IMG/VR virus record: IMGVR_UViG_2663762839_000012
From: a virus
Taxonomy: Duplodnaviria; Heunggongvirae; Uroviricota; Caudoviricetes
DNA: 7,388 nt
Direction: 5' to 3' (one strand)
Position numbers and translations under genes: made by a program. The notes under the pieces were generated by a model that worked only from the letters and a program-made list of their open reading frames with translations, had not been told where the DNA came from and did not search any database. This document shows, piece by piece, positions 3,505 through 3,972 of this stretch (positions are counted from its first letter, which is position 1; each line of letters begins with the position of its first letter).

Positions 3505-3512
3505 CCATGCGC

Positions 3513-3552
3513 AGGGGCTGTCGGTGTGAGCTGATGCCCCTCTTGTTGTTGT
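3513..3552 (+). terminator. Weak candidate intrinsic terminator after the 89-aa ORF
   Basis: A 6-bp GC stem AGGGGC (3513-3518) / GCCCCT (3536-3541) with a 17-nt loop, followed by the U-rich tract CUUGUUGUUGUG. The loop is long, so this is marginal. Confidence 0.25.
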
Positions 3553-3576
3553 GAGCTTCCGGATTGCGGGAGACGG

Positions 3577-3972
3577 GGTATCTGGACCATCTGCCGCGGT
3601 GCCATCCTGGTGGATAGTAAACCTGTCGTCCCGGGCATGAAGTTGTCGAAGGAAAAATGCGACCAGGTCAACGCCATTGAGCGTGATAAGGCGCTGGCAT
3701 GGGTGGAGCGCAATATTAAAGTGCCGCTGACCGAACCCCAGAAAGCGGGTATCGCGTCATTTTGTCCCTATAACATTGGCCCCGGTAAGTGTTTCCCGTC
3801 GACGTTTTACAGACGGATTAATGCTGGTGACCGCAGGGGAGCATGCGAAGCGATTCGCTGGTGGATTAAGGACGGTGGCAGAGACTGCCGTATCCGCTCA
3901 AATAATTGCTACGGTCAGGTATCCCGGCGAGACCAGGAAAGTGCGCTGGCGTGCTGGGACATCGACAGATAA
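3577..3972 (+). pseudogene. 5'-truncated phage endolysin remnant, GH24 / T4-type lysozyme family (R21, P22 gp19, RrrD-like); lacks the N-terminal SAR/signal region and catalytic Glu-Asp
   Basis: Frame-1 translation from about 3577, GIWTICRGAILVDSKPVVPG...FCPYNIGPGKCFPSTFYRRINAGDRRGACEAIRWWIKDGG...ESALACW, aligns with the C-terminal ~130 aa of prophage lysozymes (RrrD: GVWTVCHGHTG...[39 protein letters not shown]...). Upstream there is an in-frame stop at 3532-3534 and no E-x8-D-x5-T catalytic motif. The only in-frame starts (GTG 3610, ATG 3637) lack an RBS and fall after the catalytic region. Stop TAA at 3970-3972. Confidence 0.7.

Follow-up and report, generated by a model that had tools for sequence, protein, structure and literature searches.

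How does the late region of a lambdoid prophage come to lie against the upstream side of aceB, with intact spanin genes behind an endolysin gene that begins inside its own catalytic region, and was this arrangement produced by one event or by more than one? The locus was examined in a stretch of 7,388 nucleotides from the IMG/VR virus record IMGVR_UViG_2663762839_000012, here called the window. The left 3.1 kb of the window is host DNA and contains two open reading frames on the minus strand: aceA, encoding isocitrate lyase (185..1489), and aceB, encoding malate synthase A (1519..3120). Thousands of E. coli assemblies encode an identical AceA protein in the usual metA-aceBAK context, and the aceB frame, which was aligned to K-12 aceB, likewise has an identical protein in E. 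coli genomes in the usual metA-aceB context. REP elements lie downstream of aceA, and the sole Rfam match in the window, a REP-derived naRNA4, is located there as well. From 3228 on, the sequence belongs to a lambdoid prophage and represents its late region, with lysis and packaging genes; among phage records, those of Stx1a- and Stx2a-converting phages come closest to it.

Intact relatives of this late region share the order DUF1378, DUF826, class II holin, DUF1327 (in some of them), lysozyme, small ORFs and Rz/Rz1. The first phage gene of the window is the DUF826 gene (3235..3504, plus strand; 89 aa; PF05696, E=3e-37; phrog_311), a late-region gene that usually sits just upstream of the holin gene. 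In the assembly collection, 1,431 blocks encode the identical DUF826 protein, and all ten of the contexts listed from these blocks have a class II holin (71 aa, PF04971) and a 177-aa lysozyme downstream. The reading that we favor, with a probability of about 0.88, is that a recent, repeat-bounded deletion pseudogenised the holin and endolysin genes of a Stx-phage-like lysis cassette, and that a separate event joined the cassette to the aceB promoter region.

The endolysin remnant and the missing holin

The endolysin remnant (3577..3972, plus strand) comprises codons 47–177 and the stop codon of a GH24 lysozyme of the 933W/phage 21 SAR type. A first-pass annotation, which was made from the sequence alone, had placed the start of lysozyme homology at the residues GIWT, and both profile and pairwise comparisons agree. 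The Pfam profile PF00959 (Phage_lysozyme) matches residues 14–135 of the translation of 3535–3969 (E=3.6e-20; 73 bits, with a cut-off of 22.3), a match that takes in positions 15–125 of the 125 in the profile and places the remnant in the GH24 family. The closest relative of the phage DNA is a near-identical intact prophage in assembly GCA_050197635.1, designated L008. In BLASTP, the window codons from 3577 (GIWTICRG...) are identical to residues 47–177 of the 177-aa L008 lysozyme at 131/131 positions, and nothing upstream of 3577 aligns to that lysozyme. The in-frame stop codon that had been reported at 3532 is present as a TGA (3532–3534).

The intact L008 lysozyme, which begins MNTKIKYGLSAAVLALIAAGAPAPEILDQFLDEKEGNHTTAYRDGAG|IWT, has the arrangement E35-x8-D44-x5-T50 and an Ala/Gly-rich hydrophobic stretch at its N terminus, where the SAR-type sequence is YGLSAAVLALIAAGAPAP. 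Its sequence can be aligned with the lysozyme structures of phage 21 (3HDE/3HDF) and with that of RrrD from DLP12 (4ZPU). SAR endolysins are defined by the E-X8-D-X5-T triad together with the SAR domain, and the R protein of 933W is handled as one of them (PMC9239132). As the first-pass annotation had proposed, the window copy, which starts at residue 47, is missing the catalytic Glu35 and Asp44 together with the N-terminal signal-anchor-release domain; T50 is the only triad residue that is retained. Judged by these sequence features, the window copy is a gene fragment derived from a GH24 family member and not a functional member of the family.

At the 5′ end of the remnant, the ATG of the holin gene has been turned into ATC (3580–3582), which is in frame with the lysozyme codons. 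The first canonical start codons in this frame, GTG at 3610 and ATG at 3637, are not preceded by a recognisable ribosome-binding site. Weak initiation at ATC 3580 from the retained holin Shine-Dalgarno sequence, at GTG 3610 or at ATG 3637 could give rise to a C-terminal fragment. For the truncated ORF products (120 aa and 111 aa), no identical protein is on record in the assembly collection.

The absence of a holin gene ahead of the endolysin, and of Q, had also been claimed, and both are borne out. Directly upstream of the endolysin, the place of a class II holin gene (PF04971) is taken by the leader and Shine-Dalgarno sequence only. This 71-bp leader of the deleted holin gene is intact (3505..3575, plus strand), contains the Shine-Dalgarno sequence GGGAGA at 3568–3573, and is 100% identical to the leaders in L005, L007, L008 and other prophages. 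In L008, the holin that follows is a 71-aa protein (PF04971; phrog_9876, “holin”) that begins MYQMEKI... and has a dual start, M1/M4, as in S21. When the intact holin, DUF1327, lysozyme residues 1–47 and lambda S were compared by tblastn with all six frames of the window, no match was better than E=0.05; therefore, no holin or lysozyme N terminus is hidden behind a frameshift. The first-pass annotation had allowed for a full-length lysozyme N terminus, or for a holin and complete endolysin concealed by a frameshift, and neither emerged from this search. Q and pR′ are likewise missing from the window, because host DNA starts 7 nt before DUF826.

Between the remnant and the spanin genes, the window contains a terminator-like G+C-rich hairpin (4063..4095, plus strand; inverted repeat I6), with a 13-pair stem followed by a T-rich tail, and two small genes on the plus strand. 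The first encodes a 60-aa protein with a hydrophobic C terminus (4129..4311; phrog_1115, E=3e-42) that is kept between R and Rz in related prophages and is hypothetical in L001, L002, L008 and L010. The second encodes a 43-aa hydrophobic protein (4326..4457; phrog_4906, E=2e-23). Both proteins are identical to those of L008. These small membrane ORFs were considered as substitute holins and rejected: they coexist with an S21-type holin in the intact relatives, and their PHROG families, which have no assigned function, also speak against such a role.

A repeat-bounded loss of 756 bp

Comparison with L008 locates the missing DNA. Window positions 3228–3581 correspond to L008 positions 5994–6347 with 100% identity (354/354 nt), and positions 3576–6188 align to L008 positions 7098–9710 with 99.0% identity, such that the two alignments overlap by 6 bp in the window. 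L008 reads GACGGGGTATGTACC at the start of the holin gene and GCGCGGGTATCTGGACC inside the lysozyme gene; the window reads GACGGGGTATCTGGACC. With respect to L008, 756 bp are absent from the window: the whole pinholin gene, DUF1327 and codons 1–46 of the lysozyme. The deletion is bounded by a 6-bp direct repeat, GGGTAT, of which one copy overlaps the holin start codon and the other is found at lysozyme codons 46–48. The sole remaining copy constitutes the scar (3576..3581), as identified by a three-way comparison with the L008 flanks and by alignment to L001. The length of the deletion, 756 = 3 x 252, leaves it in frame. With L001, a prophage without DUF1327, the end points are the same and the gap is 361 bp; the ancestor may have been without DUF1327 and have undergone a deletion of 361 bp, which leaves the conclusion unaffected.

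A perfect short repeat that bounds the lost segment and persists as one copy is what slipped-strand or microhomology-mediated deletion classically leaves behind. No IS elements, att-like repeats or long repeats were found at either of the two junctions in the window, the scar and the host–phage boundary. Replication slippage or another form of microhomology-mediated illegitimate recombination is the most likely mechanism, as far as it can be read from the sequence. Spontaneous deletions between short direct repeats were reportedly described in lacI by Albertini and colleagues in 1982. Similar to the lacI-type deletions, the lost segment in the window was bounded by a perfect 6-bp direct repeat, of which one copy is left; unlike there, the mechanism in the window is deduced from the scar alone.

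The same scar is found in a second sequence. A 24-mer spanning it has one match in IMG/VR, in contig UViG_2663762839_000013 (L030), which agrees with window positions 3228–3791, scar included, at 563/564 nt, with one SNP. Upstream of DUF826, L030 continues at approximately 94% identity into a region with a SASA-family esterase gene (as in L009 and L014) and DUF1378 (as in L014). The context upstream of the scar in L030 is thus an ordinary late region and not aceB. Because L030 carries both the scar and the upstream late genes, the internal deletion is separate from the truncation of the left end.

The first-pass annotation had instead read the locus as a single deletion running from the left end of the prophage through the 5′ part of the endolysin. 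One large deletion, starting outside the left end of the prophage and extending through int, cI, Q and the holin gene into the endolysin gene, would agree with the loss of Q, the holin and the lysozyme 5′ end alike and with the position of host aceB, which lies left of the truncation at a distance of roughly 350 bp. Such a deletion cannot, however, skip the 354 bp of colinear phage DNA, composed of DUF826 and the holin leader, that part the host junction (3228–3231) from the scar (3576–3581) and that are 100% identical to intact prophages. In addition, the internal deletion has a 6-bp repeat of its own and occurs in L030 together with upstream late genes. We consider a single event highly improbable. 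Of the earlier proposal, the 5′-truncated, catalytically dead endolysin stands, and the removal running from the left end of the prophage does not.

The 24-mer has no match in GTDB representative genomes or JGI metagenomes, and a 40-mer spanning the scar has no match in 5,426 complete E. coli genomes; the allele therefore has not spread. The deletion allele, found in one sequence other than the window, is rare, and the kind of event is ordinary.

The junction upstream of aceB

The second rearrangement joins the phage DNA to the host. Homology to the K-12 metA-aceB intergenic region runs to approximately 110 bp upstream of the aceB ATG and ends at window position 3230, and phage homology begins at 3228. 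This junction between the aceB upstream region and phage DNA, termed junction 1 (3228..3231), lies 4–7 nt before the DUF826 start codon and displays a 3-bp AAA microhomology. A 40-mer spanning junction 1 has no match in the 5,426 complete E. coli genomes, and a 30-mer has none in GTDB representative genomes, JGI metagenomes or IMG/VR. Proteins identical to those encoded on the two sides are common, with AceB found in 274 blocks, AceA in 3,688 and the terminase small subunit Nu1 in 46,895, and among the matches listed the contexts are ordinary.

Junction 1 is seen in this window alone and might, in principle, reflect faulty assembly. The wider proposal that the window is chimeric or misassembled, and that one or both of its junctions are not real, is consistent with the absence of both junctions from the 5,426 complete E. 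coli genomes, GTDB representative genomes and JGI metagenomes, with the otherwise normal metA-aceBAK context of the identical AceB and AceA proteins among the matches listed, and with the mere 3 bp of microhomology at junction 1. The scar, however, is reproduced in the independent assembly L030, with a different upstream context and one SNP, and is therefore real. Chimeras, moreover, normally join at long shared repeats rather than at 3–6 bp, and neither junction has an IS element or such a repeat. An artefact is, in our estimation, quite unlikely, and the favored reading is one of two rearrangements, an internal deletion and a fusion to aceB.

The position of junction 1 with respect to the aceB promoter can be described by comparison with K-12. 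K-12 reads ...TTAAAATGGAAATTGTTTTTGATTTTGCATTTTAAATGAGTAGTCTTAG... in this region; from TTGATT on, the window agrees with it, and everything upstream is replaced by the start of DUF826. A candidate aceB promoter, TTGATT-17 nt-TAGTCT, is our own reading and was not called by a simple consensus scan. The part of PMC2724298 that summarises Yamamoto and Ishihama (2003) gives a primary IclR site from -52 to -19 and a secondary site from -125 to -99. When these coordinates are set on the candidate promoter, the primary IclR site as given in that summary maps exactly onto TAAAATGGAAATTGTTTTTGATTTTGCATTTTAA.

On that reading, and with the site coordinates of the summary, junction 1 would bisect the putative primary IclR operator of aceBAK, and the secondary site would have been lost with the metA-proximal DNA. 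The junction could thus free aceBAK from IclR control. If junction 1 is real, the metA-side regulatory DNA and half of the putative IclR operator have been removed, and control of the glyoxylate shunt could change. A more elaborate scenario links the two rearrangements: the lysis-null allele, shared with L030, would be in circulation as a variant that detoxifies a leaky SAR endolysin, and the fusion at approximately -37 of the aceB promoter would put phage DNA in place of the upstream half of the primary IclR operator and of every control site farther upstream and so render aceBAK independent of IclR, the two together forming a linked adaptive pair instead of neutral decay. We regard this scenario as an unlikely one; if true, it would represent natural rewiring of a promoter by a prophage fragment.

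Lysis genes, age of the lesion and packaging genes

The genes downstream of the endolysin remnant had been described as intact and lambda-like, and profile and sequence comparisons confirm this description for the spanins, cos and the small terminase subunit. The i-spanin Rz (4469..4927, plus strand; PF03245, E=7e-50) is 152 aa long from the ATG at 4469, in an ORF that opens at GTG 4454. It has the hydrophobic N terminus of an i-spanin, shows 0 nt differences from L008, and is identical to lambda Rz at 110/152 residues. The 61-aa o-spanin Rz1 (4680..4865, plus strand; PF06085, E=1.5e-19) is embedded in the +1 frame of Rz, is identical to that of L008, and matches lambda Rz1 at 43/61 residues. 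Its lipobox, V-S-A-C, fits the consensus [LVI][ASTVI][GAS]C (PMC6139136). Farther along, the plus strand encodes a 74-aa phage protein (4951..5175; phrog_2571) and a 108-aa lipoprotein with a TonB C-terminal domain (5520..5846; PF03544, E=1.4e-14). The latter gene, a probable moron or cargo gene, is identical to that of L008 and is annotated “TonB family protein” in L001.

In the intact pathway, the pinholin depolarises the inner membrane, upon which the tethered SAR endolysin is freed, refolds and degrades the murein (PMC9239132). The Rz/Rz1 complexes are confined by the peptidoglycan mesh and, after the endolysin clears it, fuse the inner and outer membranes (PMC6139136). The ancestor of the window would have been a Stx-phage-like lambdoid prophage with this three-step lysis, carried out by a class II pinholin of the S21/933W type, a SAR endolysin and Rz/Rz1. 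We propose that a single recent deletion of 756 bp between the GGGTAT repeats knocked out the pinholin, DUF1327 and endolysin residues 1–46, leaving 3577–3972 as a pseudogene that has neither a promoter nor a canonical start codon and in which the holin ribosome-binding site faces an in-frame ATC. With no export signal and two of three catalytic residues gone, the endolysin fragment would be neither exported nor able to cleave peptidoglycan. If neither depolarisation nor murein degradation takes place, the spanins would stay caught in the peptidoglycan mesh, where they should be harmless, and the cassette would be unable to lyse the cell. In a second, independent rearrangement, phage DNA just upstream of DUF826 would have been joined to the aceB promoter region, with loss of Q, pR′ and everything farther left; the order of the internal deletion and the aceB fusion is one that we infer. 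From its sequence, we predict with high confidence that the cassette is non-functional.

The cassettes of phage 21 and of the Stx phage 933W are the nearest functional counterparts, and the intact relatives share with them the order DUF826, class II holin, (DUF1327), 177-aa lysozyme and Rz/Rz1. Compared with these cassettes, the window is without the pinholin, endolysin residues 1–46, Q and pR′, and encodes the spanin step alone. Having lost Q/pR′, the holin and the endolysin 5′ end while keeping other phage genes, the region has the makeup of a defective lambdoid prophage. Defective lambdoid prophages that retain fragments of the late region are commonplace in E. coli, with DLP12, Qin and Rac as the examples in K-12. 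Like the window, DLP12 (essD-rrrD-rzpD/rzoD), Qin (rrrQ, ydfR) and Rac are remnants that keep parts of the late region beside host genes, and related loci among the E. coli matches are annotated as rrrQ and YdfR family. DLP12 retains intact holin and endolysin genes. The window, in contrast, has lost exactly these two, and its flanks are identical to a presumably active prophage, which points to a lesion of recent origin and not to the erosion of an old remnant.

The age of the lesion can be read from the divergence between the window and L008. Outside the deletion, there are 0 differences over 3228–3581 and over 3576–5038, and 2 nt differ over 3228–5993. Both of the latter lie in the 74-aa ORF (4951–5175), and both are non-synonymous; no nucleotide differences from L008 exist in the lysozyme remnant, either of the two small ORFs, Rz, Rz1 or the TonB_C gene. 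With near-zero divergence from an intact prophage, the deletion is young, and since there has been no time for decay, selection cannot be deduced from the intact state of the spanin and cargo genes. The first-pass annotation had called the cassette decayed, a term that does not suit a region with so few differences from L008, and had taken the retention of intact spanins and cargo genes as a hint of selection on the cargo; near-identity to L008 needs no selective explanation. With a lesion this young, intact neighbors should not be read as a sign of selection.

A related proposal is that the fragment has been domesticated, such that the deletion itself was selected and the host profits from the retained lysozyme C-terminal fragment, spanins or small genes. 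For example, a toxic SAR endolysin would have been removed and cargo such as the TonB_C lipoprotein retained. Even with no holin present, spontaneous release of SAR endolysins can lead to lysis (PMC9239132), so loss of S and of the 5′ part of R would remove a hazard. The presence of the same deletion allele in two genomic contexts, the window and L030, is compatible with this proposal, as is an in-frame deletion that sets the holin Shine-Dalgarno sequence before an in-frame ATC. There is, however, no canonical start codon behind that Shine-Dalgarno sequence, and the encoded fragment is missing the catalytic Glu and Asp. At near-zero divergence, purifying selection is neither demonstrable nor required for intactness, and the only two substitutions in 3228–5993 both change amino acids in the 74-aa ORF. 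The allele is also found in 0 of the 5,426 complete genomes, so it shows no spread. We judge domestication to be unlikely and retain the reading of a recent deletion with pristine surroundings. As such, the window provides a clean, datable case, of small importance by itself, in which one microhomology deletion disables the lysis genes of a prophage, and a small recent deletion of this type represents an ordinary route by which a prophage can lose the ability to burst its host.

A mosaic breakpoint lies within the YlcI/YnfO family (DUF3950) gene (5978..6178, minus strand; PF13132): of the 26 mismatches to L008, 23 are concentrated at 6074–6183. The DNA to the left of this switch is L008-like, and the DNA to the right is lambda-like, with cos, Nu1 and A; beyond the switch, L008 has an HNH/Terminase_2 packaging module instead. 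Homology to lambda begins at 6044, and window positions 6044–7388 are 95.2% identical to lambda DNA across cos. The lambda-type 12-nt cohesive-end sequence GGGCGGCGACCT is located at 6385..6396 (plus strand) and is followed on the same strand by the gene for Nu1, the terminase small subunit (6574..7119; PF07471, E=4e-101), which is identical to lambda Nu1 at 179/181 residues. The gene for the terminase large subunit gpA is represented by its start (7094..7388, plus strand), in a frame that stays open to the end of the window and at a position that agrees with the lambda A annotation.

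Distribution and reading frame of the lysis-null allele

The holin-lysozyme deletion scar is found unchanged in an independent IMG/VR contig, UViG_2663762839_000013 (L030), in which positions 1–564 (minus strand) correspond to window positions 3228–3791 and are identical at 563 of the 564 nucleotides. The upstream late genes of L030, namely the SASA-family esterase and the DUF1378 region, are retained. The lysis-null allele, accompanied in L030 by normal upstream late genes, thus exists outside the aceB context.

The deletion maintains the reading frame (window 3568–3582), as the 756 missing base pairs represent 3 × 252. 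The Shine-Dalgarno sequence of the holin gene, GGGAGA, survives 6 nt 5′ of an in-frame ATC, which is the former holin ATG and now constitutes Ile48 of lysozyme. A 130-residue C-terminal lysozyme fragment might be made by trace translation.

Host/phage junction upstream of aceB

The junction between host and phage DNA is positioned at 3228–3231, at the end of the aceB upstream stretch (3121–3230). It lies ~110 bp from the aceB ATG, on the upstream side, and displays 3 bp of microhomology (AAA) with no IS element at the junction. The hexamer directly adjoining the junction, TTGATT, we take to be the −35 element. From the sequence and the published coordinates of the primary IclR operator of aceBAK (−52 to −19; PMC2724298), we infer that the junction would split this operator in two, and that the secondary IclR operator and all metA-side DNA would have been lost. 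The junction sequence has no match in 5,426 complete E. coli genomes, nor in GTDB representative genomes, JGI metagenomes, or IMG/VR. At the other end of the host segment, the REP elements downstream of aceA contain an Rfam match (81–158, minus strand, 81.8 bits) to naRNA4, a REP-derived nucleoid-associated RNA.

Genes and breakpoint 3′ of the lysozyme remnant

Directly 3′ of the lysozyme remnant is a strong terminator-like hairpin (4063–4095) composed of a 13-pair stem and a T-rich tail, which sits within a normally Q-antiterminated late operon. Two small hydrophobic ORFs of 60 residues (4129–4311, phrog_1115) and 43 residues (4326–4457, phrog_4906), both members of PHROG families of unknown function, are placed between the endolysin and Rz genes and are also kept in intact relatives.

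The gene at 5520–5846 is closely preceded by a promoter-like site (5460–5487) and encodes a 108-residue lipoprotein carrying a TonB C-terminal domain (PF03544). Its PHROG family, phrog_1267, is labeled "Rz-like spanin" in PHROGs, which appears to be an annotation carry-over; the gene itself looks like a moron, or cargo, gene.

A mosaic recombination breakpoint (5994–6183) is observed inside ylcI/ynfO (5978–6178, minus strand). The DNA to its left is nearly identical to prophages of the L008 type (L008 being the intact reference prophage), in which the packaging module is HNH/Terminase_2, and the DNA to its right is lambda-type, comprising cos, Nu1, and A. The mismatches to L008 are concentrated in the breakpoint stretch (23 of 26).
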